Origin: a virus
Lineage: Duplodnaviria > Caudoviricetes
Reading direction: 5' to 3' (one strand)
Length of the DNA stretch: 58,847 bases
IMG/VR virus record: IMGVR_UViG_3300014613_000029
Span: 1-58,847 of that record
Both the position numbers and the translations under genes were made by a program. The notes below the pieces were generated by a model, which was not told the origin of the DNA, did not search any database, and worked only from the letters and a program-made list of their open reading frames with translations. Shown here in pieces: positions 12,980 through 34,383 of this stretch (position 1 is the stretch's first letter; each line of letters begins with the position of its first letter).

Positions 12980-13399
12980 ATGAACGCTTTAACTTTATCC
13001 AGTACGTACTCTGATCCGGGCCGGAAGGTAAAAAGGAGTGATTATGAACCTTTACCTTTAAAGTGGAAGGTCGTTTTGGATTACCGCCTTTCAGGTAAAC
13101 GCGTGCCGGAGATTTGCCGCTTGACGGGTTACTCACCACCTACGGTGTATCATATATTAAATCATGAAAGAACCCTACTTGCAAAACAATTCCTTTTAGA
13201 ACAAACGCAGGAAGAGTTTTCCTGTCTCTTCGAGAAGGTTACTAAAGTTATTGAAGAGAAGTTAGGCGATCCTGAAAAGCAGCTTGAGGCTGCCTCGTTA
13301 TGGCTCAAGGCTAATGGGAAGTTTAAGGATACTGGGAAGCTTCAAGTAAATGTGAGTGCTGAAGACATCGTCATGCAAATCTTGAACCAGGAAGGTTGA
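12980..13399 (+). CDS. terS: Terminase small subunit (HTH)
   Basis: HTH (VPEICRLTGYSPPTVYHIL); stop overlaps the TerL start. Confidence 0.7.
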   Translation: MNALTLSSTYSDPGRKVKRSDYEPLPLKWKVVLDYRLSGKRVPEICRLTGYSPPTVYHILNHERTLLAKQFLLEQTQEEFSCLFEKVTKVIEEKLGDPEKQLEAASLWLKANGKFKDTGKLQVNVSAEDIVMQILNQEG

Positions 13400-14994
13400 T
13401 GTTAAGTAAAGAAGGCAAAATCATCCAGGGCATGTTTCAAATCTCAACGAAGGAGGGCCCGCGCGTTCCGTTTAAGCTAAATACCTTCCAGCTTTGGCTC
13501 GATGAAATGATTCATGATCCAGACTACCGCTCTTTCATTCTGGCGAAACCCCGCCAGAAGGGTGGCTCATCCTACATCGAAGCAGTCCTCTCAACTCGTT
13601 GTCTTGGAAAGATAGGCACTCGAGCCGTCGTAATGAGTCATGAAGGAGAGGCTACGCAGCGTCTCTTGGACAAAGTCCACTTCTACCTTAAGTATACCAA
13701 CCCGCTACCTGCTTATGATCGTAACTCTAGAAACGAGCTCGCCTTCGGAAAGACAGACTCAACGTTTTACATTGGCACTGCTGGTGCACGGGCCTTCGGC
13801 AGGGGTGATACCATTACTGATCTGCACTGCAGTGAGTACTCGTTTTGGATGGATGCTGTGAAGCATTCAATCGGCCTCTTCCAAGCTGTACCGGCCTCAG
13901 GCTTTAAAATTCTCGAATCAACGGGCAATGGAAGGAATAACGACTTTCACTACATCTGGCAACATGCCGATCGGATGGGCTATAAACGCTTGTTTGCTCC
14001 GTGGTTCATCGATCTTGAGTATTCACGCTCGTTACCTTACGCAGACTGGAACCTTCGCGACGTTGATACTCAACATCTTACCTACCTCATAAACCTTCAA
14101 GGTAAGTTCAATCTCTCGATAGAGCAGATGTTTTGGTATGCCTGTAAACTCGCCGAACTTCGTGATGACCTTCACCTTATGCAGCAGGAGTATCCTGGTG
14201 AACCGGAGGAATGCTTCCAGGCGACGGGCGGGTCGATCTTTCCTGATGCTGAGCTCACCTCAAGTAAGGCCTGGCAAGATCTCTTACTCTTTAACATTAG
14301 GATGTTTGGCCTTCCAGACCATCCCAGGCCTGATCTTCACTACGTCTTCGGTGGAGATCCTTCGGGCGGTACGGGTCATGATGATGCGGGCCTTGTATGC
14401 TTTTGTGTAGAGACCTTCGAGCAGGTTTTACGGTTTAGTTCAAACACTACCGATCCAGTAATCTTTAGCAAGCTTCTTATCGATCTTGGTAGGTTTTACA
14501 ACCATGCCTACCTAGTCACCGAATCGAACAATCATGGTGCTGCCGTTATCCCGATCCTGAAGAGAGACTACGATCGTTCTCTTCTCTATTATTACAAACG
14601 CGCCACAACGAAGTCTCCGGCTAAATACGGCTGGCTTAATACCCAGCAACATAAACAAGAGCTGGTTGGTGGGATGCAAGAGATGCTTGATCAGTTTACC
14701 TTCTATGATAAGAAGACGGTGGAGGAACTTCAAGCCTTCGAAGAAGATGCTGAAGGCAGGATGGGCGCGAAGAGTGACAACCTCGTCATTGCCGCAGGCC
14801 TTGGCATGCTAGGGTGTATGAAGCAAATCAGGTTCAGGACGGATTACCTCACTCCACCACCTTTACCGAAGGAGAAGCCTTCTTCGTATATGTTCTGGAC
14901 ACTTGATGATGCGTTAAAGAGCATTGAGATGCAGCAAAGGCGAAGTGGATACTTCAAGCCACAAGTACAGATCGGGACGGGTTGGGTAAACTAA
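13396..14994 (+). CDS. terL: Terminase large subunit
   Basis: KPRQKGGSS Walker A, LHCSE Walker B, ESTGNG coupling motif, GGDPSGG and ESNNHG nuclease motifs. Confidence 0.95.
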   Translation: MMLSKEGKIIQGMFQISTKEGPRVPFKLNTFQLWLDEMIHDPDYRSFILAKPRQKGGSSYIEAVLSTRCLGKIGTRAVVMSHEGEATQRLLDKVHFYLKYTNPLPAYDRNSRNELAFGKTDSTFYIGTAGARAFGRGDTITDLHCSEYSFWMDAVKHSIGLFQAVPASGFKILESTGNGRNNDFHYIWQHADRMGYKRLFAPWFIDLEYSRSLPYADWNLRDVDTQHLTYLINLQGKFNLSIEQMFWYACKLAELRDDLHLMQQEYPGEPEECFQATGGSIFPDAELTSSKAWQDLLLFNIRMFGLPDHPRPDLHYVFGGDPSGGTGHDDAGLVCFCVETFEQVLRFSSNTTDPVIFSKLLIDLGRFYNHAYLVTESNNHGAAVIPILKRDYDRSLLYYYKRATTKSPAKYGWLNTQQHKQELVGGMQEMLDQFTFYDKKTVEELQAFEEDAEGRMGAKSDNLVIAAGLGMLGCMKQIRFRTDYLTPPPLPKEKPSSYMFWTLDDALKSIEMQQRRSGYFKPQVQIGTGWVN

Positions 14995-14995
14995 G

Positions 14996-15523
14996 ATGCC
15001 TAATCTTCGACAGAAGATTCTAAAGAAGATTTTTGAGAGGGGTGTTGAGTCGGTCTCTAAAAAAGACTTGAAAGCTCTTTTTAGTAAAGGAAGTAAGAGA
15101 ACTCATCTTTTTAGGCATGACTGGGATCCTTTAGAGCTTGCTAGAAGTGGGTTTGAAAAGACTGGCAGACCCGATGATATCAGAGGAATATATTATGCAA
15201 GAGACCCTGATGTCCTTCAGTACTTAGTTCCAGTTGAAAGTACTTCATATGCTAGTAAAATTAGACCTAACGTTGAAGGGATTCCCCGTCCCGGAGCAAA
15301 ATGGAAGGATATCTCTAGAGCTACTTTCGACGAGGATGTAGAGAACTTAGGAATTGACTTTGGAACGAGGAAAGACCCTTCTGGGTTACAAGAAGTAATT
15401 CAACTTGCTCCTAATAATGTTTTAGCAAAGATAAGGACAAAGAAGGGTATCATGTATCGTATTCTCAGCGTCTTAGGAGCTCTAGAGCTTTTAGAAAAGA
15501 GTAAAAGCGAAGAAAGGAGGTAG
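14996..15523 (+). CDS. ADP-ribosyltransferase-fold putative virion effector E1
   Basis: LFRH...GIYYA...QEVIQLAP, colinear with the two ART-like modules of the giant ejection protein. Confidence 0.55.
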   Translation: MPNLRQKILKKIFERGVESVSKKDLKALFSKGSKRTHLFRHDWDPLELARSGFEKTGRPDDIRGIYYARDPDVLQYLVPVESTSYASKIRPNVEGIPRPGAKWKDISRATFDEDVENLGIDFGTRKDPSGLQEVIQLAPNNVLAKIRTKKGIMYRILSVLGALELLEKSKSEERR

Positions 15524-15527
15524 TGCG

Positions 15528-16556
15528 ATGGCTACTGTATTACTAATAAACAAAAGAAACGAAGGTGTACCAATTGCGCTCAGACTGGCACAACAAGAAG
15601 GACATATTGTGAAGCTTTACTCATTAAACGATCACGCAGGATGCTTACAAGGCTTTAAGAATCCAGCCTTTATAGGCAACCCAAAGCGTATGGTAGAGCA
15701 ATACGATCTTGTCCTCAAGACCAATGAGTTCGGCGAGCGACTCCTCACCGACGATGAGTACTACCTAAAGGTCTGGAAGACTGTCCTTCCCTTACCTCTC
15801 TTCGATCAGTATGAATGCAAAGACGCCTTGAAGATCACCCTTGAGGGTTGGTTCACAGGCCAACACTGGTCACCTTTAGTAACCTTCTGTATCGACGACG
15901 AACGCCTAATGGACGGCGATCGAGGCGTCCTAACACCAAGTATGGGTTCGACGATGATCTCGCTCCGCGAAGGTAAGCTATTCGACACTCTTCTCCAACC
16001 TTTCACCGAGCTCCTCCAGAAGGTCTCCTACACCGGGCCTTTCAGTGTTGAAGCCTTCCTCAAGGAAGACAAAGTATGGTTAGGCTTCTTTCGCCCTCAC
16101 TACCAATACGATCATCTTCCCTTAATTTGTGAGCTTCTCCGGGAGCCCCTCTTTACCTTTCTTTACCAATTAACGCTTGATCAGAACTACCAACCACAGG
16201 TAAGTCAGGATGTAGCGCTTGGGGTAAGACTTAGTCTCAGTCCGTGGCCTCTTGAAGCTGATTGCAATCACCTGAAGGGTCGTTGTGATCTTGAAGTGCC
16301 GAAAGAAGCAAGGCCTCATGTCTGGCTTCGTGACGTATGCCGTAACGGTGATGAAGAGGAACGTACTGCAGGATGTGATGGAGTTCTCGCCTTCGTAACA
16401 GCTCATGGCAGTGATGTCAACGAAGCAAGGCGACGCGTTTACCGAACGATTAGTAACATTGTAAAGACAAAGGACGTGCAGTATCGCTCTGATGTCGGTT
16501 CGATATTTAACGACTCGATAAGTGAACTAAAGGGGCAAGGTTGGCTAAATGCCTAG
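15528..16556 (+). CDS. ATP-grasp ligase, PurD (GAR synthetase)-like
   Basis: RLMDGDRGVLTPSMGS resembles the PurD GDxGPNTGGMG loop; C-terminal G.dv.eArrrvY...YRSDVG matches the PurD C domain. Confidence 0.75.
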   Translation: MATVLLINKRNEGVPIALRLAQQEGHIVKLYSLNDHAGCLQGFKNPAFIGNPKRMVEQYDLVLKTNEFGERLLTDDEYYLKVWKTVLPLPLFDQYECKDALKITLEGWFTGQHWSPLVTFCIDDERLMDGDRGVLTPSMGSTMISLREGKLFDTLLQPFTELLQKVSYTGPFSVEAFLKEDKVWLGFFRPHYQYDHLPLICELLREPLFTFLYQLTLDQNYQPQVSQDVALGVRLSLSPWPLEADCNHLKGRCDLEVPKEARPHVWLRDVCRNGDEEERTAGCDGVLAFVTAHGSDVNEARRRVYRTISNIVKTKDVQYRSDVGSIFNDSISELKGQGWLNA

Positions 16557-17391
16557 TAGTGAACTACTAGCAAAGATGTTAGTAGAAGAAGCAGCTAAGA
16601 AGGGCTATCTTAAAGGCTCTAAAATAGCTCTAAGAGAGATTCGTAGGTCAACTATAAAAGACCTTCTAGGCAAGGTATTCAAGATAAGACCTGAGCCGGC
16701 TGAGGAAGTTCCTGGTTTATATAGAATGCACCCGCCAAAAATGCCTATAGAGCCTGTTTCTGAAGAACATGCAAGAGTAATGGAGGGTGTACTGCAGCCA
16801 ATGGCAGGAGTTCCGGTCGGTAGTAGACCAAGCGAGGATAGACTAAAATTAGTGGCTTCAATACTTGGGAACTTTAGATATGAAAGACTAGCTAAGTACC
16901 TTGCAACAAAACCTCCTGAGCAAGCCTATAAAACATATAGAAGACAGGGACGTGGTGAAACATTAAAAGAATATCTTCGGTCTCATACTCTCGATGTAGA
17001 TGTTTCTAACCTCGAAGAGTTTGTGAAAATACCTGTAGCACAGAGAGGAGTTCTAACTGCAGCTTTAAGAGCAGAACAAGCGGTAGGTGGTCCTATAGGA
17101 ACCTCAGAGCTTATGAGAACTCCTGTACCAGAAAAGACTGGTAGGACTCAATTATTCGTCAGCGGGCCTATGCACCGAGGAGGTTGGTCACCTTGGGACT
17201 GGTCTGATAGAATGTTACGTCATTTAAATAGTTTAGCTAAGCGCGGTTACCTTAATAAAAATAAGACCAGTGGCAGGTATAAGTTCTCTTCCACGGAAAA
17301 GGCTCGTAATCTTATAAAGACTTTAGGAGCAACATCTGGATTAGGGTTAGGACTAAGTGAAAGTACATTACCTCCCGGAGGGGAAGATTAA
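16549..17391 (+). CDS. Putative virion effector E2 with C-terminal winged-HTH-like segment
   Basis: HLNSLAKRGYLNKNKTSGRYKF; C-terminal Gly-rich hydrophobic tag. Confidence 0.55.
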   Translation: MPSSELLAKMLVEEAAKKGYLKGSKIALREIRRSTIKDLLGKVFKIRPEPAEEVPGLYRMHPPKMPIEPVSEEHARVMEGVLQPMAGVPVGSRPSEDRLKLVASILGNFRYERLAKYLATKPPEQAYKTYRRQGRGETLKEYLRSHTLDVDVSNLEEFVKIPVAQRGVLTAALRAEQAVGGPIGTSELMRTPVPEKTGRTQLFVSGPMHRGGWSPWDWSDRMLRHLNSLAKRGYLNKNKTSGRYKFSSTEKARNLIKTLGATSGLGLGLSESTLPPGGED

Positions 17392-17399
17392 CAAGTTAA

Positions 17400-17489
17400 A
17401 GGGGCAGGGGTGGTTGATGTGACGAGCTACCTCCTCTCGTTTGGCCGGAAGGATATGCCAGAGTCCGATAGGCTAGCCTCCCTGCCTCA
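17400..17489 (+). other. Intergenic stem-loop
   Basis: GGGGCAGGG (17401) pairs with CCCTGCCTC (17480), enclosing about 65 nt. Confidence 0.45.
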
Positions 17490-17511
17490 TCACTTTGTGA
17501 AAGGTTGAAGG

Positions 17512-18690
17512 ATGCCAAACGAAGAACAGAGCTTAGCAGAACAGATCGTTGGTGGAATTGGTAGCTTTCTTAGCCCAAGCGAAGCTGAGGCCTTTCCTAA
17601 AGTTAAATTTAAGACAAAGACTTTAGAAGAAGCAGTTGCTTTAGCCCGCAGTCGTATATTTGATAGAATTAAGTACGGCGTAAGAGAGGAGATTGCAGTA
17701 GAACCATCATGGAAGGCAACATGGTCAAACACCAGTGGCTGGTGGGTAGAGCAACCTGATAGGCTTAATACAAGCACTAAGTGGTTTAAAGCTTTATCTC
17801 CAGAAAAGCAAGAAGGACTTAAGGCTCTTTACAAGGATAAGAGAATAGGGCTTGGAGATGTAGTTAAACTAGATGCTAATGAAATCTTAGTGCCTTCCAA
17901 ATATGCAAGCAAACTTAAGAAGTGGTTTGAGCAGGAAGCTCCTCCACTGCCTCTTTACTCAGGATCATTCGAAGCAACTAAGTTAGGTAAGGAGGCTCCG
18001 GGAGCATTGATGAGAGAATCAGTGCCTGAGGCTATTGAGAGCAAGATGAGTCAGGTATCGCCGGAGGTTGAACTCTTTAAGCAAGCTGGAGGGATAGAGA
18101 AGAAAAAGAAATTGCCTCTTAGTAGTGTAGCTATTCCAGCAGCTTTTGGTGGAGGTTTAGCAATGTCTAGTTTACTCGAACCAAGCGAAGCCGAGGCATC
18201 GCCGATAGGCAAACTCGTCAGCAAGGTAGTAAAAGGCCCAGCTTCGAGTGCAGCCAGAGCACTCATCGGCCATGAGATCTCTGGTATGAAGATTAAGAAT
18301 GTTATTAAAGGTCGCGAACCTTGGCGTTACATCCTTTTCGAAGGAACAGATCAAGTGATGCCAGTAACGAAGGACGTGTTAAACGACCTTGCTCGGAAGT
18401 TTGGCGAAGATATGTACACCGGCATTGCTGAAGCTAGTCGACCTGCTGAGGCTCTCAAGATGGCTATCAAGAGTGCTGAGAGACGCCTCAGCCTTAAAGG
18501 TACAGGCTCTTATACAAAAGATGAGCTCATTGCTATGGAAGCTAAGCACGTTAACGTTCTTGAAGCTTTAGAGCTCCAGCGCGGGAAGCAAGCCTTAATT
18601 ATCTACAGAGGTGAGAGGATTCGTATTCCAGAGGTGTATGCTGATATTCTCGAGAAGTTCAACCTTGGTAGGAGAGTGAAAGGTAAGTAA
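17512..18690 (+). CDS. Two-module polyprotein E3 with PSEAEA|xP linkers
   Basis: IVGGIGSFLSPSEAEA|FP and AFGGGLAMSSLLEPSEAEA|SP. Confidence 0.65.
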   Translation: MPNEEQSLAEQIVGGIGSFLSPSEAEAFPKVKFKTKTLEEAVALARSRIFDRIKYGVREEIAVEPSWKATWSNTSGWWVEQPDRLNTSTKWFKALSPEKQEGLKALYKDKRIGLGDVVKLDANEILVPSKYASKLKKWFEQEAPPLPLYSGSFEATKLGKEAPGALMRESVPEAIESKMSQVSPEVELFKQAGGIEKKKKLPLSSVAIPAAFGGGLAMSSLLEPSEAEASPIGKLVSKVVKGPASSAARALIGHEISGMKIKNVIKGREPWRYILFEGTDQVMPVTKDVLNDLARKFGEDMYTGIAEASRPAEALKMAIKSAERRLSLKGTGSYTKDELIAMEAKHVNVLEALELQRGKQALIIYRGERIRIPEVYADILEKFNLGRRVKGK

Positions 18691-18692
18691 AC

Positions 18693-20474
18693 GTGCCAAC
18701 ACCAAACGACGAACATAAAGAATTCACAACCGACTGGATGCAACGTATCAAAACAGGCCTAGACTTCCGGAAACGTTACTCCTCTGAAAAGAAATGGCCT
18801 TCTTACCGGAAGTACTATCGTGGGCACTGGGAAGCTGACATCCTGCCGGTAAACCGCACTTTCTCCTATGGCCGTAACCTCATCCCTCGAGTTTACTTTC
18901 GCTCACCACGCGTTACCGTTACTCCTACCCGGCCTGACCTGGCTTGGCATGCTCGCGTCGTCGAAGAGATTGACAACCAGCTCATTCAACAAACCTTTCT
19001 TAAAGCAACCTTGAAGAAAGGCTCGTTAATAGGCTACCTTTGTGGTATCGGCCCGGTCAAGCTAGGTTACGACTCAGAGTTTGGCTTCGACCCTTCGCAG
19101 ATCATCTCACAGGATGGCTCAACCGTTACTCAAGAATCACGCACTAAGCCCGGCGAGCGTATCGAATACCATGAAGGCATCCAGCCTGGCTATCCATGGG
19201 CCCTTCCCGTCCAGCCCGAAGACGTTGTCGTACCTTGGGGATCGACGGATGCTCAAAGCTTACCCTGGATTGCTCATCGAATCTATCGTCCCTTAGACGA
19301 TGTTAAGCAAGACCAGAAGTACCTACAGACTAAAGACCTTCAAGGCTCACGTCAACCTGATGCTAACCGCAGGTGGGTAGGTGGTCGACGCATCGATAAA
19401 GATAAAGATATTCCCTTTGCTGAGCTCTGGGAAGTACGTGATTACAAATCACGCTCGATCTTTACCTTTTGTGAGAACACCTTGCTCCTCAGTCAGCAAG
19501 ATGCTCTCCAAGCAGCTGCTAATGGCCTTCCCTGGGAGTTCATCATCTGGAACGAAGATCCTGAGTACTTTTGGCCTATCGCCGACGTCGACATCATCGA
19601 GCCTCAACAACTCGAATTGAATGAAACTAGAACGCAGGAAAGTCGGCATCGACGTATCGCCCTTCTCAAATTTCTTTACAAGAAAGGTGCCTTTGCAAAG
19701 GAGATGCTTGAACACTTCCTTAGCGGGGAGGTAGGGCCTGCTGTAGAGGTCAATGAAGCTGAAATTCTTTCAAGCGCAATTATTGCGTTACAACCTCATA
19801 TTCCACCTGATCTTCGAGCAGCGGCGAACCAATGCCTCGTTGACATGCAAGAATCACTTGGCTTTGGGCCTAATCAGGCAGGACAATATAAGGCAGGTAC
19901 TCCTCCTTCTGCTTCGGAAGGAAACATCGTCAACCAAACTTTCGAAGCTCGTATCGACGAACGTCAAGATATCCTTAGTGATGTTCTCGTACGCATCGTC
20001 AAGAAATGGAATCAATATATCTTTAACTTTTGGACAGAGGGGAAGGTTACTCAGATTACTAGTCCTCAAGGTACGCCCTTCTGGGTAAGCTATACTGGTG
20101 ATCAGATCAAAGGTGATTACTTCCTTAACGTCGATCCTGAATCAGGAATGCCTGTCTCTCGCGTCTTACGATACCAAATGGCAGAGAATCTCTTCAAGCA
20201 GTTTAATGGTGATCAAACGGTAGACCAGCTCTTACTTCGTAAGATCTACCTGGATACCTTCTCCCAAGTCGAACCTCTTGTTAGGAATCTTTTGACTAGC
20301 CCACCTGAAATCAGCCCTCAGGAAGAGGGTCTGAGAAGGCAACCTCTAGCTCCTGGTGGGAAGGCCGGCAATCTACAAGATTTAGTAAAAGGCGTGGGTA
20401 ATCGAGGTGGCGGACCAAAGGCTCCAGGAGAGGTCATTCCGCTTGATAAGCTTGCGAAGGGAGGTAAGCTTTAG
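18693..20474 (+). CDS. Portal protein
   Basis: 593 aa; position and pattern (W..YrkyY.G, PRVYFRSPRVTV, I.EPQQ.ELN, SASE) typical of podoviral portals. Confidence 0.85.
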   Translation: MPTPNDEHKEFTTDWMQRIKTGLDFRKRYSSEKKWPSYRKYYRGHWEADILPVNRTFSYGRNLIPRVYFRSPRVTVTPTRPDLAWHARVVEEIDNQLIQQTFLKATLKKGSLIGYLCGIGPVKLGYDSEFGFDPSQIISQDGSTVTQESRTKPGERIEYHEGIQPGYPWALPVQPEDVVVPWGSTDAQSLPWIAHRIYRPLDDVKQDQKYLQTKDLQGSRQPDANRRWVGGRRIDKDKDIPFAELWEVRDYKSRSIFTFCENTLLLSQQDALQAAANGLPWEFIIWNEDPEYFWPIADVDIIEPQQLELNETRTQESRHRRIALLKFLYKKGAFAKEMLEHFLSGEVGPAVEVNEAEILSSAIIALQPHIPPDLRAAANQCLVDMQESLGFGPNQAGQYKAGTPPSASEGNIVNQTFEARIDERQDILSDVLVRIVKKWNQYIFNFWTEGKVTQITSPQGTPFWVSYTGDQIKGDYFLNVDPESGMPVSRVLRYQMAENLFKQFNGDQTVDQLLLRKIYLDTFSQVEPLVRNLLTSPPEISPQEEGLRRQPLAPGGKAGNLQDLVKGVGNRGGGPKAPGEVIPLDKLAKGGKL

Positions 20475-20956
20475 TGTCACCTTTAAAGATCAGTCCTGAG
20501 GTAAGAAAGAAGATCATTGAAAAGCTTCTCTCTACCCCTGAAAGGAAAGCTCTTTGGAAAGAAGTAGAGTCTGCGGTTGAAAGAATTTTAGCCTTACCAG
20601 AATCTAAGAGGGCTTACCTCCATGGATCATTTATTACTAAGAAGCCTAATCCACAGGATGTTGATCTAATGCTTAGAGTAACGAACAAGGCTTATGAAAA
20701 TGAAGTTTTAAATGTTCCTGAACATCTTCGTCCCGGAAACTTTTGGCCTCTGAAAGATGCTGAAGTTAAAACTGCTCCTATCGATCTTGGAGTAACAAGA
20801 AATTTAGCAGAAAGAGGCGCTAAAATACTAAGAACAAGTGGACGTAGACGATACGGCAAAGATTACAAATGGATCCGCATTGCTAGTCTCTTAGCAGCCT
20901 TAAAAGCTATGGGAGTAACGAAGGAAAAAGAAAAAGAAGAGGCGAAGGAAGAATAA
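20474..20956 (+). CDS. Minimal nucleotidyltransferase (Pol-beta superfamily) putative effector E4
   Basis: YLHGSFITKKPNPQDVDL fits the hGS...DxD motif, with a third Asp in PIDL. Confidence 0.75.
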   Translation: MSPLKISPEVRKKIIEKLLSTPERKALWKEVESAVERILALPESKRAYLHGSFITKKPNPQDVDLMLRVTNKAYENEVLNVPEHLRPGNFWPLKDAEVKTAPIDLGVTRNLAERGAKILRTSGRRRYGKDYKWIRIASLLAALKAMGVTKEKEKEEAKEE

Positions 20957-20957
20957 C

Positions 20958-21236
20958 ATGCCCCTCTACGACTATAAATGCACCTCATGCCAAGCTGAGT
21001 TTGAAGCTTTTAACAAAATAGGCGCTCGGCTTAAGCAACGCTGCATTAAGTGTGGTAAGCCAACCTCGATCCAACTCTCAAGTTTGCATAGCGATTGGTT
21101 CAAACCATTCACCAGCGAGGACTTCACCGGCGAGCCAATTGAAGTAAAATCGAAGAATCATTACCGTGATCTTTGCCGTAGGCACAACGTCTATGCCAAA
21201 GTGTTTGGAAAGGGGCATAACATCTCGGAGATCTAA
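20958..21236 (+). CDS. FmdB-family zinc-ribbon protein
   Basis: MPLYDYKCTSC...FE...CIKCG. Confidence 0.85.
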   Translation: MPLYDYKCTSCQAEFEAFNKIGARLKQRCIKCGKPTSIQLSSLHSDWFKPFTSEDFTGEPIEVKSKNHYRDLCRRHNVYAKVFGKGHNISEI

Positions 21237-21238
21237 GA

Positions 21239-21859
21239 ATGCCAAAGATTCCTCCTGGTATTAGAGAAAGAATACTTAAGGCTGTTTTAGAAGGAGGTTC
21301 TAGACCTTCTGAAGAGATTCTTGAAAGAATCATAAAGGGTATCATTGAGGAAGCTCCTATTGTACCAAGAGGAATAAGGAAGACAGGGATAGTAGCTACA
21401 AATCCTATGACCGGCAATCTAATATCAGATGTAAGACTACAGTTAGGGAAGCCACGTACTACTGAGTTCAGTACATACAAAATTACACATGACCCTATAC
21501 GAGGTGAGGTCTTCGAGCCAGGTAAGAAGACAGTACGTTATGCACCTCAAGCTCAAGTTGAAGCTTGGGATGAAGTACTGAGAAACTGGGACGTAGTTGA
21601 TACCTTCTACCGAGGAGGCACAAAGGATCCTTGGACGGGAAAGAAGATAAAAACTAGTGGCCTCGTAGATGCTCTTGAGGCTATTGCTAGATGGACCGGC
21701 TATGCGGCTGGGCCTGAAGCAGGCTTACAAAAACATATTAGAGGACTTAAAGCTCCGGTGATAAAACCAGGAAGCTTAAACTCAGTCCTTTATGGTCTAG
21801 GACTCTTAAAGGCTTTTGAAGAGCTAGAGGAATCGAGAAGGAAGGTGGTTAAGAAGTGA
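21239..21859 (+). CDS. Putative virion effector E5
   Basis: N-terminal MPKIPPGIRERILKAVL and C-terminal SVLYGLGLLKAFEELEE tags resemble those of E1 and E4. Confidence 0.55.
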   Translation: MPKIPPGIRERILKAVLEGGSRPSEEILERIIKGIIEEAPIVPRGIRKTGIVATNPMTGNLISDVRLQLGKPRTTEFSTYKITHDPIRGEVFEPGKKTVRYAPQAQVEAWDEVLRNWDVVDTFYRGGTKDPWTGKKIKTSGLVDALEAIARWTGYAAGPEAGLQKHIRGLKAPVIKPGSLNSVLYGLGLLKAFEELEESRRKVVKK

Positions 21860-22119: not shown

Positions 22120-22560
22120 ATGGATTCAGTACAACTAGCGCGAATGGTAACAATCAAGCTAAGTCCTGAAGGCTTTAAAGTAGAGTTCGAAGGGGCGATG
22201 TGGGGGAAGCGTTACATTGACCAGGCTCATCGAGCAATGCTTCGTAGCTTTCCAAAGTACTTAGCAGAGGCGAAGAAGAAAGGAGAAAAAGAAGATGGTA
22301 AACGAAGCGACAGAGCAGGAACAGGAACAAGGCAAGGGGTTACAGACAGAGGGGAAGGAGAAGGGCTCTCCTCCGGAGAAGAAAGAGTCTTCGACAACTC
22401 AGCAAGTAACGAAGGTGGAGTTGACAGCGGAGCAATACAGCGCGATCCTGGACCGAATGGAGGAGCAGGACAAGATGATCGAGAGGCTGACAAGCTCCTC
22501 GAAAAAGGAGAAATCGTCGAGCGTCCAAGACATCGACGAGCTGGCTCGAGAAGGACGTGA
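22120..22560 (+). CDS. Hypothetical protein whose C-terminal part overlaps the scaffold gene
   Basis: GGAGG RBS; 266-nt overlap in another frame. Confidence 0.55.
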   Translation: MDSVQLARMVTIKLSPEGFKVEFEGAMWGKRYIDQAHRAMLRSFPKYLAEAKKKGEKEDGKRSDRAGTGTRQGVTDRGEGEGLSSGEERVFDNSASNEGGVDSGAIQRDPGPNGGAGQDDREADKLLEKGEIVERPRHRRAGSRRT

Positions 22561-24990: not shown

Positions 24991-26073
24991 ATGAGTGGAA
25001 TTGTAAGAAGAAATGATCTTGATAGGTTAATGGGCTGGTTGCTTAACGTGATCGGCCCTGGCGTTGGTGATGTGTTCTTTGTAGCATCAGCTAATAGTGC
25101 TTATGAAACGTGGTATAAGAAGATTGGAGTTGATTCGAGTCATTTATTTGCAACTGTTGCACTTGCTTATGCAGCAATGACAACCGGAAGAAACGATACC
25201 ATTCTTATGGCTCCAGAAGGTATTGCGGCAACAGCAGAACTTGACTGGACAAAGAATAACTGTAATCTGATTGGTCTTGGTGGTCCTAACGTACAGGGTA
25301 GAAAAGGACCTAGTGGTACCTTCCCAACGATGTATGGTGGTTCTTGTCTCTACTCTACTACAACTGGATTGGTCCATGTACTTCATCTCACCGGAGCAAG
25401 AAATCGCTTTTACAACATGCACTTCGTAAATGCTGTCAATGAAGCGACAGCCCTCTCAGCAGTTAGGGTAGGTGGTAGTGCAAACCTTTCCTACGGTAAC
25501 TACTTTAAGAGCTGTAACATTCAGGGTATTGCAGGCACAACTTGTAATAGTGCACTAGCTAGTTCCCTTACCATAGGATCTGGTGCATCATACTACCAAT
25601 TTGACGATTGCACCATTGGTAACAACACCTATATGGGTGCAAGAGCTACTGCTAACCAAGGCCATGTATTTTATTCAGGTTCTGCTCAGGAAGGTCTTGG
25701 AGCAGGTTATGGTCCTCAGAATGGTATCTATAACCGATGTACATTCTTAGATAGAGTCGTAACAGCTGCATCAGTTCCTCTGATTACTGTTGGTTCAGCA
25801 GCTGGCGATGGGGAAGCAATGGATCGTGTCCATATCTTTAGAGATTGTGTCTTCTCTAACTGGTATGGGGCAGTGGCAAACATAAGTCATGTGTTCAAGT
25901 TAATGTGTAACTCATATTACAAGATCGAGCTACATAACTGCACAGCTTCAGGATATGATTACTGGAGAGTTGTAGCAGGTGGAGAGCCCGGTGGAAGGTT
26001 GTGGGCAAGTATGCCGATCACAGGGTTAGGCGGTGGGTTAACTAGAGAACCTACTTCGGCAGTTGGCAGTTAA
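24991..26073 (+). CDS. Beta-helix (pectin-lyase-like) virion protein
   Basis: VFFV...TVALAY...GRNDTIL and repeated F.nC.I/F strands. Confidence 0.65.
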   Translation: MSGIVRRNDLDRLMGWLLNVIGPGVGDVFFVASANSAYETWYKKIGVDSSHLFATVALAYAAMTTGRNDTILMAPEGIAATAELDWTKNNCNLIGLGGPNVQGRKGPSGTFPTMYGGSCLYSTTTGLVHVLHLTGARNRFYNMHFVNAVNEATALSAVRVGGSANLSYGNYFKSCNIQGIAGTTCNSALASSLTIGSGASYYQFDDCTIGNNTYMGARATANQGHVFYSGSAQEGLGAGYGPQNGIYNRCTFLDRVVTAASVPLITVGSAAGDGEAMDRVHIFRDCVFSNWYGAVANISHVFKLMCNSYYKIELHNCTASGYDYWRVVAGGEPGGRLWASMPITGLGGGLTREPTSAVGS

Positions 26074-29197: not shown

Positions 29198-29380
29198 ATG
29201 CCGTTGGCGAAAGGTACTTCACAAAAAACAGTGAGTAAGAACATCGGAGAGTTAATGCATTCCTACCGCAAAGGTGGAGACTTTGCAAAAGGTAAGTCTC
29301 CTCAGAAGGCCCGTCAAATGGCCATCGCAGCCGCCTTTGGTATAAAGGAAGCGCAGATGAAGAAGAGAGGAAAGAAGTAA
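29198..29380 (+). CDS. Small basic phage protein (MPLxKGxS...NIxEL...QxxAAA family)
   Basis: Recurrent motif in phage head modules; GGAGG RBS. Confidence 0.7.
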   Translation: MPLAKGTSQKTVSKNIGELMHSYRKGGDFAKGKSPQKARQMAIAAAFGIKEAQMKKRGKK

Positions 29381-33191: not shown

Positions 33192-33451
33192 AAATGTCGT
33201 ACGAAAAAGCAAATATTCAAATTACAATTAAGCTTGATGGAGAAGGATTGATTCCAGATTCCTTTAAAAAGGGTTACGATCTTCTTATTGAATCAGTTAA
33301 AGTTTTAAAGGATGGTTTTGTATCTACTCGCTTGGATATGGAGGAAATCTCCAAAGAAAATATTGTGGATGAGACATCTATAATTGCAAAGAGGCATACT
33401 TGCAACCATGATGTGAGTCCGTCAACCCCTTGCGTGGAGGAGGAAATCTGA
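33188..33451 (+). CDS. Hypothetical protein
   Basis: Coupled to both neighbours. Confidence 0.55.
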   Translation: MKMSYEKANIQITIKLDGEGLIPDSFKKGYDLLIESVKVLKDGFVSTRLDMEEISKENIVDETSIIAKRHTCNHDVSPSTPCVEEEI

Positions 33452-34383
33452 TGGCTACACTTTATACAGAGCTGATAAGACAAATAATGCTTAACCTCCA
33501 ACCAAGGAGCGATGGTGTCACTCGCTTAGCGGTTGAGAAAGCAATAAGTGATGCTCAGCGAATTATTGCCTCGGTTAAAGATTTCGACGAGTTAATGACT
33601 CTCGATACAACCAATGCTTTCACCGCAGTAATCTCCTCAGGAGAGATCTCAGTTGTTTTTGCAGCGACTGGGGATACAATCACCAGAGCAACCGGCTCCT
33701 TCGTAACTGATGGCTTTACAGCAGGAACTTCAATAACGACAGATGATGATGATAATCCTGGGCCGCTTACCATCCTGACTGTTACTGCCTTGGTAATCAC
33801 CGTACATGATGACTTGACAGACTCTACCAACACTGCTTGTACTATAACTCATAACAAGAGACTATATCACATCGAAGATGATCTAGATCTAACAAGACCT
33901 AAGGATATCTACTCAATCAGGCTGATGGATAGTGCTAATAGTAGAAAGCTCACCTACGTACCACCAAGAGAGCTTGACAGTAAGATTCCTTACACAGATC
34001 TAGTAGGAACTGGAAGGTCGTCTTGGTACACAGTGAGAGGACGCTATATCGAATTGTTTAGAATACCTGATGATGTCTATCCTCTTTACATCTCGTATAG
34101 CCAGTGGCCTGCTGCTGCTGACTTTACAGACTCAAGTGATGCAACTCCTTTCGAACGAATAGATCATGTCATAGTCTCGCTTGCTACTGATATGGCCTTA
34201 GCTAGTCTTGAAGGAGGCAGTGGAGATTGGTTTCAGAGAGCAAAGCAACTACTTGGTACAGCTGTAAGTGAGGAAGTAACGAGACCAGATCAATTACTTG
34301 TTGCTAGGCCTTTTCAATCTTCTAAGGTTGGACCGATCGGAGAGTATTGGAACAACCCATGGGTGAAGAGACAACCGGAATAG
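33451..34383 (+). CDS. Head-tail adaptor protein with an inserted Thr-rich domain
   Basis: TLYTELIRQI...AISDAQR...IELFRIPD..Y.L.I.Y adaptor pattern. Confidence 0.7.
   Translation: MATLYTELIRQIMLNLQPRSDGVTRLAVEKAISDAQRIIASVKDFDELMTLDTTNAFTAVISSGEISVVFAATGDTITRATGSFVTDGFTAGTSITTDDDDNPGPLTILTVTALVITVHDDLTDSTNTACTITHNKRLYHIEDDLDLTRPKDIYSIRLMDSANSRKLTYVPPRELDSKIPYTDLVGTGRSSWYTVRGRYIELFRIPDDVYPLYISYSQWPAAADFTDSSDATPFERIDHVIVSLATDMALASLEGGSGDWFQRAKQLLGTAVSEEVTRPDQLLVARPFQSSKVGPIGEYWNNPWVKRQPE

Follow-up and report, generated by a model that had tools for sequence, protein, structure and literature searches.

Variable protein modules and a conserved EAEA junction in the head operon of an uncultured podovirus-like phage

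Results

Organization of the head operon

The window considered here is the whole of the IMG/VR virus record IMGVR_UViG_3300014613_000029, a linear DNA of 58,847 nucleotides (58.8 kb; estimated completeness 77%) from a phage that is known only as a metagenomic record. Between the large terminase subunit gene terL and the scaffold gene, its head operon contains five protein modules, referred to here as cassettes: the separate genes E1, E2, E4 and E5, and the inserted part E3N of E3, the protein encoded directly before the portal gene (Table 1). The window was compared with 87 related loci (1796 open reading frames (ORFs) in total, predicted with a simple ORF caller of our own). The sequence comparison points to a cassette system that is real and goes beyond chance, with a conserved junction, two carrier proteins and modules that are either fused or free.

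The late block lies on the plus strand in the order HNH, terS, terL, the region studied, scaffold, major capsid protein (match to PHROG 9953, 2.6e-32) and a block of tail genes, among them that of an SU10-type adaptor at 33430-34383 (Pfam, 8.7e-7). The last late-block proteins comprise 337, 465, 285 and 1681 amino acids (aa). We read the phage as podovirus-like on the basis of the adaptor match and the gene order and not of a cultured relative. The order terL-E1-ATP-grasp-E2-E3-portal-E4-FmdB-E5, given by the initial annotation from the letters of the stretch, was borne out by the ORF coordinates. The same applies to the close and mostly coupled packing of the genes: from E1 through E5 the gaps to the preceding gene are +1, +4, -8, +120, +2, -1, +1 and +2 nucleotides (nt), and that from E5 to the next gene is -4 nt. 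Every peptide quoted in that annotation was located in the window proteins. The portal label has weak profile support and is backed by tblastn and by 117 relatives in IMG/VR; the tblastn search of 50,697 phage records matched a single record, at 20% identity. Promoter- and terminator-like sites of the region were fewer than the shuffled expectation, and a scan of the window found no tRNA genes.

Table 1. Features of the head operon and of the large late polyprotein. GC3, G+C content at third codon positions
Feature	Positions	Strand	Remarks
terL	13396-14994	+	solid family matches
E1, free-standing cassette, 175 aa	14996-15523	+	fused homologues; GC3 0.33; not in L082
E1 N-motif	14999-15055 (residues 2-20)	+	family profile search
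E1 C-terminal helix YRILSVLGAL, then charged tail	15446-15520 (residues 151-175)	+	
ATP-grasp-like (distant PurD-like) core gene	15528-16556	+	directly upstream of pre-portal protein
E2, free-standing orphan cassette, 280 aa	16549-17391	+	GC3 0.28
E2 C-terminal TLGATSGLGLGLS helix, then tail	17308-17388 (residues 254-280)	+	linker-profile rank 2/1710
E3 leader, 27 aa, ends ...GGIGSFLSPSEAEA	17512-17592	+	homologous to leader of L082 and L001
E3N, inserted module with own linker, ends ...GGGLAMSSLLEPSEAEA	17593-18198 (residues 28-229)	+	not in L082, L001
E3C, conserved carrier domain, begins SPIGK at P1'	18199-18690 (residues 230-392)	+	22-sequence alignment A2
Portal (core)	18693-20474	+	tblastn E 3e-14 to a record annotated head-to-tail joining protein; weak Pfam/PHROG portal matches
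E4, free-standing nucleotidyltransferase cassette, 160 aa	20474-20956	+	Pfam DUF6932; GC3 0.29
E4 N-motif	20477-20533 (residues 2-20)	+	
E4 C-helix WIRIASLLAALKAMG, then acidic tail	20867-20953 (residues 132-160)	+	
FmdB-type zinc ribbon (core)	20958-21236	+	Pfam Zn_ribbon_8 1.2e-11; NCBIfam 8.4e-12; 29 loci
E5, free-standing cassette, 206 aa	21239-21859	+	GC3 0.31
E5 N-motif MPKIPPGIRERILKAVL	21242-21298	+	matched by E1- and E4-family profiles
E5 weak C-tag	21773-21856 (residues 179-206)	+	rank 467/1710
Large polyprotein, N-part: 23-aa leader and modules PA, PB, PC, PD	42557-44491	+	EAEA/KAEA junctions; GC3 0.27
Large polyprotein, C-terminal body, ~1020 aa	44492-47560	+	assigned by position at end of tail/adaptor block

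Free and fused forms of the modules

The proposal that modules exist singly or fused was confirmed among the relatives, in which homologues of E1 and E4 were found in both states. E1 is free in the window and in P0005 (69% identity), and P0006 (79% identity), P0007, L014, L009 and L002 carry it joined to the pre-portal domain; P0006 and P0007 have the architecture E1-junction-C-domain, with YRILGLTGALGG...EAEA at the position equivalent to the E1 tail. E4 stands alone in the window and in L015, there directly after the portal gene, and is fused in L002, L016 and L012. In the pre-portal protein of L002 (549 aa), an E1-like module comes first, an E4-like nucleotidyltransferase second and the conserved C-domain last, with a junction after each of the first two. 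Pre-portal proteins also contain homologues of two large-polyprotein modules, of PB in L022 (E 5e-7) and of PC in L087 (E 5e-13). Together with the two states of E1 and E4, this indicates that modules are exchanged among the two carriers and the free form. All homologues found were located either in a head module or in a large late polyprotein.

The free-standing genes terminate within about 5 residues of the place where the junction would be. Counted by eye, 22 residues in free E1 and 30 in P0005 follow the Y of YRIL, compared with 24-27 up to the junction in five fused forms; from the start of the E4 helix, the free protein extends for 28 residues and the L015 copy for 21, compared with 23-28 up to the junction in three fused forms. 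Beyond the helix, the sequences of free and fused forms diverge completely. When the E1 family was compared with PB and PC by hhalign, only the last 36-45 columns aligned (E 4e-4 and 0.041). In the alignment to PB (43430-43573), the last ~45 residues of E1 (15380-15520) cover a QEVIxLxPxxV strand and the helix, so the C-terminal unit common to the two may be longer than the helix alone.

The EAEA junction

In E3 and the large protein, the junction opens with a Gly/Ala/Leu-rich stretch free of charged residues, mostly continues with x-P-x and closes with EAEA and [S/A/F/G/M]-P. With a search pattern into which A-x-A was built, 27 distinct junctions were detected in the window and the 87 loci, all of them in the protein directly upstream of portal in the relatives or in E3 and the large protein of the window. 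The uncharged run covers 8-21 residues (median 12), and proline occupies position -6 in 20/27 junctions and position +2 in 20/27. Since the EAEA codons differ from site to site, the conservation lies at the protein level.

Two of the 22 aligned carriers (L011 and L051) start with a Met exactly in the P1' column and have an in-frame stop 0-1 codon upstream. These leaderless starts and the ends of the free forms at the junction are our main reason for considering the junction as the likely real end of mature proteins. In the AlphaFold2 (AF2) model, the linker before the carrier domain was disordered (predicted local distance difference test (pLDDT) below 50) and may therefore be accessible to cutting. 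Literature searches returned no description of this junction, the peptide motif itself not being searchable there. Cleavage at the junction is, in our estimate, somewhat more probable than an intact chain.

The two carriers

The initial annotation had counted E3 among the free effectors; instead, E3 (17512-18690) is a conserved core carrier domain, E3C, preceded by a leader and one inserted module, E3N (GC3 0.34, measured over 17593-18207). The carrier domain occurs in at least 22 relatives and was modeled with a pLDDT of 81.5. It has no match in Pfam, PHROG or NCBIfam, and a Foldseek search of PDB and BFVD returned nothing at E<=0.001. A complex prediction that paired the mature carrier domain (residues 27-189 of A2) with the tail of E1 (residues 136-175) scored 0.00 and is evidence neither way.

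The second carrier, the large polyprotein, most likely begins at ATG 42557, which overlaps the upstream stop (TAATG) and follows a purine-rich stretch, and not at TTG 42515. Its leader would then comprise 23 aa, similar to the 27-aa leader of E3. The C-terminal body had no family match in the profile searches and a single match, with 12% coverage, in the tblastn search of the phage records. We consider it a putative ejection or internal virion protein.

The core gene downstream of E1 encodes a distant PurD-like, ATP-grasp-like protein whose matches lie below all curated cut-offs: Pfam GARS_C with 9.3e-5 (23.1 bits vs 34.8) and NCBIfam purD with 1.1e-5 (24.5 bits vs 288). The match to PurD in PDB (2xcl) had an E-value of 0.23.

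Accessory nature of the cassettes

The portal protein of L082 is 92% identical to that of the window, and yet this relative lacks E1, E2, E3N, E4 and E5. A blastn comparison of the two yielded collinear blocks of 72-83% identity which are broken exactly at the five cassettes. Each break falls on a gene or junction boundary, and a 60-aa ORF takes the place of E1. The same five cassettes are absent from L001. Synteny with relatives thus agrees with the earlier expectation that the cargo varies while the tags persist.

GC3 is 0.27-0.34 in the cassettes, the N-terminal large-protein modules being counted among them, compared with a median of 0.38 in 34 other late genes (Mann-Whitney p 0.0016). The flanking core genes range from 0.46 to 0.55, and some genes of the tail region are as low as the cassettes. 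A 15/17-nt direct repeat flanks E2 (16528-16544 and 17397-17413), and a 16/17-nt direct repeat that encodes PSEAEA flanks E3N (17575-17591 and 18181-18197); no flanking direct repeats were found at E1, E4 and E5. The two repeats look like footprints of cassette insertion.

Shared termini

The initial annotation had described an N-terminal proline followed by a basic helix as common to the free proteins. Proline at residue 2-3 occurs in 13/42 late ORFs vs 4/48 others; it is a general trait of late genes and not specific to the cassettes. The helix was recovered in E1, E4 and E5, at E-values around 1e-3, but not in E2. In leave-family-out profile searches of 1796 N-termini, the E1 profile placed E5 at rank 6 (E 0.0017), the E4 profile placed E5 at rank 4 (E 0.0013) and the E5 profile placed E1 at rank 4 (E 0.0083). 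Single-family profiles also ranked the N-termini of the first modules of polyproteins near the top. The motif reads roughly P-x-[IL]-R-x-x-[IV]-L-[KR]-x-[IVL]-[FL]. These N-termini had further been said to mirror the predicted mature N-termini of the polyproteins; this comes down to a loose likeness, because the post-EAEA N-termini of the window polyproteins were not within the top 45 matches of the combined N-profile. No nucleotide repeats join the termini, so their likeness lies at the protein level. An additional 60-aa ORF at 29198-29380 (+) has a Pro-basic N-terminus, a hydrophobic C-terminal helix and a basic tail and is conserved in L015, L017, L018 and L019; in the more distant L024 and L070, a similar small protein is encoded directly upstream of portal.

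The other proposed element, a C-terminal hydrophobic helix with a charged tail, held for E1 and E4 by homology and for E2 by profile rank, and for E5 in composition only. Our first rule for such C-termini, an uncharged run of at least 10 residues, selected 2/102 window ORFs and E2 alone of the four E proteins. A looser rule set post hoc (a run of at least 8 residues, then a charged tail) selected 7/102 window ORFs, namely 4/4 E proteins vs 3/98 others (Fisher 8e-6). In the relatives it was matched by 51/1608 ORFs (3.2%), mostly membrane proteins. A profile of eight fused linkers, taken from relatives only, was searched against 1710 C-terminal 40-mers and ranked E2 2nd, E1 4th, E4 6th and the L015 copy of E4 7th, with non-significant E-values of 0.3-3. 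A broader linker profile gave weak scores of 1.5-3.1 bits; its best match, at a non-significant 3.1 bits, was the C-terminus ...ITGLGGGLTREPTSAVGS of a 360-aa late protein (24991-26073, +).

Protein families of the modules

By its Pfam match (residues 13-77; 2.3e-11, 44.7 bits vs a cut-off of 27), E4 is a DUF6932 nucleotidyltransferase, and its alignment with the L015 copy shows hGS and DxD-like motifs. A tblastn search of the 50,697 phage records did not yield a match to E4, and a literature search for the term DUF6932 returned no paper. Searches of Pfam, PHROGs and NCBIfam assigned no family to E1, E2, E5 or E3N. The term effector, used for all of these genes in the initial annotation, is mostly a label, because E4 alone has a supported enzymatic family.

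A search for E2 homologues of 154-490 aa among 5.8 billion proteins found E2 itself only. E5 has one homologue among 1.84 billion representatives, P0003, with 50% identity, and the ESM Atlas contained nothing usable for it. The same resource gave weak leads for E1, to DUF3990 and ART-PolyVal (TM 0.46, score 0.78), which Pfam searches with seven family members at E<=10 did not support. E1, PB and PC may be ADP-ribosyltransferases, a tentative idea that Pfam did not back for the E1 family. An AF2 model of E1 from a 7-row alignment had a pLDDT of 39.4, too low to be used.

Other genes

Among the 71 other ORFs of the window are genes of the 7-deazaguanine/queuosine type, encoding QueC (2.8e-55), GTP cyclohydrolase I, PTPS, a QueF-like protein and a radical SAM protein; this set suggests modified DNA. 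The window also encodes DNA polymerase A, a ligase, uracil-DNA glycosylase (UDG) and a lysozyme. The terminase large subunit of L001 (880-3480) comprises 866 aa vs 532 aa in the window and L082, which hints at an insertion, for example of an intein or an endonuclease. An ORF of 146 aa at 22120-22560 (+) runs 266 nt into the start of the scaffold gene in a different frame, and its first ~60 residues resemble separate small ORFs in L002 (7193-7468) and L013 (5795-5995).

Discussion

Proposed function of the cassettes and alternative explanations

The explanation that we regard as the best, and towards which we lean slightly when it is taken as a whole, is a set of accessory-protein cassettes linked to the assembly of heads in an uncultured lineage of podovirus-like phages. 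A cassette would be a variable globular domain which ends in a Gly/Ala/Leu-rich hydrophobic helix and which, in three families, also opens with a common basic amphipathic helix. Through the linking element helix-x-P-x-EAEA↓[S/A]-P, cassettes would be strung N-terminal to either of two carriers, the 160-aa domain encoded directly before the portal gene or the ~1000-aa body of the last large late protein; alternatively, they would form separate genes at gene boundaries of the head operon that end at the junction position. A protease would cut the junction, the carriers would bring fused cassettes into the procapsid, free cassettes would be recruited via the retained helix or helices, and the cassette proteins would exit with the DNA. 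The five modules are probably capsid cargo, because relatives hold the same modules as separate genes or as junction-joined polyproteins. Packaging and delivery of the cassette proteins appears to us close to an open bet, tending to the doubtful side, and a true address role of the termini is clearly more tentative. In its most specific form, the Gly/Ala/Leu-rich C-helix, with the N-terminal basic helix in some families, would be a portable capsid-loading tag which acts in cis (cut at EAEA) and in trans, is read by a head component in a lineage that has no recognizable head protease, and represents a phage counterpart of the encapsulin loading peptides; we judge this to be unlikely, though worth stating.

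Several observations weigh against modules that are cut at the junction and addressed by their termini. Pfam scans detected no peptidase family in 20 late proteins scanned singly, nor among 25 of the 38 Pfam families listed for the other 71 ORFs; HExxH was not found in the late proteins, and the 22-sequence alignment of the carrier domain has no invariant residues of catalytic type. The large polyprotein is assigned as an ejection protein by position only. As for the termini, the C-tag thresholds were relaxed after the data had been seen, the C-terminus of E5 ranked 467/1710 and was not picked up by the fused-linker profile, and P0003, which may be truncated, stops short of the E5 tag region. 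E2 never appeared within the top 22 of the N-terminal profile searches, the N-helix of E4 overlaps the Pfam nucleotidyltransferase match, and the tails of E1 and E4 could be inherited relics.

The latter thought can be extended to a full alternative, in which the free genes arose by cassette shuffling or fission, their helices are leftovers of linkers and the proteins act, unpackaged, in the late infected cell. Descent from fused forms would explain the tails of E1 and E4. This alternative is also favoured by the complete divergence behind the helix in free vs fused forms, by the failure of the profiles to detect the E5 C-tag and the E2 N-motif, by a P0003 without tag region and by the insertion footprints, which suggest recent events. 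A relic would hardly account for the two free E4 orthologues of the window and L015, which share 9/15 residues of the C-helix and 10/21 of the N-motif at only 30/109 (28%) in the body; termini that are better kept than the body argue for a function in the free state, albeit with small numbers. The linker-like C-terminus of the orphan E2 (rank 2/1710) and an N-motif common to three unrelated families speak in the same direction, and we consider relic termini doubtful as the full explanation. The most conservative alternative attributes the shared termini to the composition of unrelated small late proteins. Short linker profiles with non-significant scores and an N-terminal proline that is common among late genes are compatible with such a chance origin, but it is disfavoured, to the point of being very improbable, by the whole-module homology with fused forms, by ranks 2, 4 and 6 of 1710, by the cross-family N-motif (E ~1e-3) and by the low GC3 common to the cassettes.

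Two further alternatives assign another role to the junction. ATP-grasp enzymes such as RimK and LysX modify or ligate acidic C-termini, and EAEA and the acidic tails (EE in E4, ED in E2, EEEEED in the large protein) might be recognized or modified by the co-conserved ATP-grasp ligase instead of being protease sites. This explanation is kept alive because the ATP-grasp gene, which always lies directly upstream of that of the pre-portal protein, co-occurs with the carrier: among 57 loci with at least 3.5 kb upstream of portal, 15 contain both genes, none E3C alone, 36 neither and six the ATP-grasp gene alone by BLAST, three of the latter six having a carrier in A2. Shared ancestry may account for this co-occurrence, L021 has an ATP-grasp gene but no pre-portal protein, the enzyme is a distant PurD-like match, and cutting is the better fit to the carriers that lack a leader and begin at P1', which makes a ligase substrate improbable. 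Even less probable, in our opinion, are membrane-active segments, linkers that work after ejection in the manner of signal peptides and are cut by host signal peptidase I or aid inner-membrane crossing. Signal peptides typically combine a short hydrophobic core with a helix breaker at -6 and with Ala at both -3 and -1. The uncharged runs (8-21 residues, median 12), the proline at -6 in 20/27 junctions and the A-x-A ahead of the boundary follow this rule, and the body of the large protein likewise has Gly/Ala-rich hydrophobic stretches. The sites are, however, internal or placed behind acidic leaders and not behind basic N-regions, A-x-A had been chosen in the search pattern and is hence not independent evidence, and the nucleotidyltransferase cargo would be needed in the cytoplasm.

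If the helices truly address the capsid, the phage could add, drop and swap injected proteins cassette by cassette, fused or free, and a short natural tag and junction would be at hand that could be tried for packing foreign proteins into phage heads. If nothing is packaged, the alignment to L082 still provides a clean natural example: within 7 kb, five insertions interrupt a head operon that is otherwise collinear, and 17-nt repeats flank two of them. The analysis also brings out two targets worth solving: a conserved pre-portal carrier domain without fold match and a junction for which no protease was found.

Comparison with known systems

When the junctions are compared with Sec signal peptides, the hydrophobic core and A-x-A are present and the basic n-region at the N-terminus is missing. 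The large late protein resembles the ejection proteins of podoviruses (T7 gp14-16, P22 gp7/16/20, N4 vRNAP), which reside inside the capsid until they are expelled into the host, in being encoded after the tail genes; unlike these, it has no sequence or family match, and the link is one of position. In T4, the internal proteins IPI-III and Alt possess an N-terminal capsid targeting sequence which is removed by the prohead protease gp21 at an L/I-x-E site. The cassettes may be analogous in that a short peptide common to unrelated proteins is combined with a stereotyped site and, possibly, with head loading for injection. In contrast to T4, no prohead protease was found here, the junction contains A-E-A, the phage is podovirus-like, and the conserved element precedes the cut and would remain at the C-terminus of the cargo.

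Encapsulin cargo-loading peptides are short, C-terminal and Gly/Ser/Leu-rich and bind the inner face of an HK97-fold shell. A short C-terminal peptide of similar composition on unrelated cargo would be the common feature; unlike those peptides, the tails are acidic or mixed here, and the likeness would be one of function. A paper related to these cargo-loading peptides is PMC13669383. A small conserved head protein adjacent to portal that bears variable domains is also found in the effectors fused to MuF/SPP1 gp7 that are named in PMC5512222; the carrier identified here differs in that it lies upstream of portal, has its cargo N-terminal and is without a MuF or fold match.

For phage polyvalent proteins, packaging and MuF fusions have been discussed and autoproteolysis has been proposed (Iyer, Burroughs, Anand, de Souza and Aravind 2017; PMC5512222). 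According to that article, they likewise combine unrelated domains in one polypeptide and are encoded beside portal-terminase head genes, and packaging and delivery together with the DNA are predicted for them. In our data, at least two unrelated domains per polypeptide occur in E3, the large protein and the L002 protein, and the E3 locus lies in a portal-terminase virion module. The marker domains MuF, zincin-like peptidase and ART-PolyVal gave no Pfam match, and the late proteins contain no HExxH. Distinct from the polyvalent proteins, as far as the available text of PMC5512222 goes, are the helix-P-x-EAEA junction, the pre-portal carrier and the free tagged copies. With the tested marker domains lacking and architecture and genomic context in agreement, phage polyvalent proteins are the closest described class.

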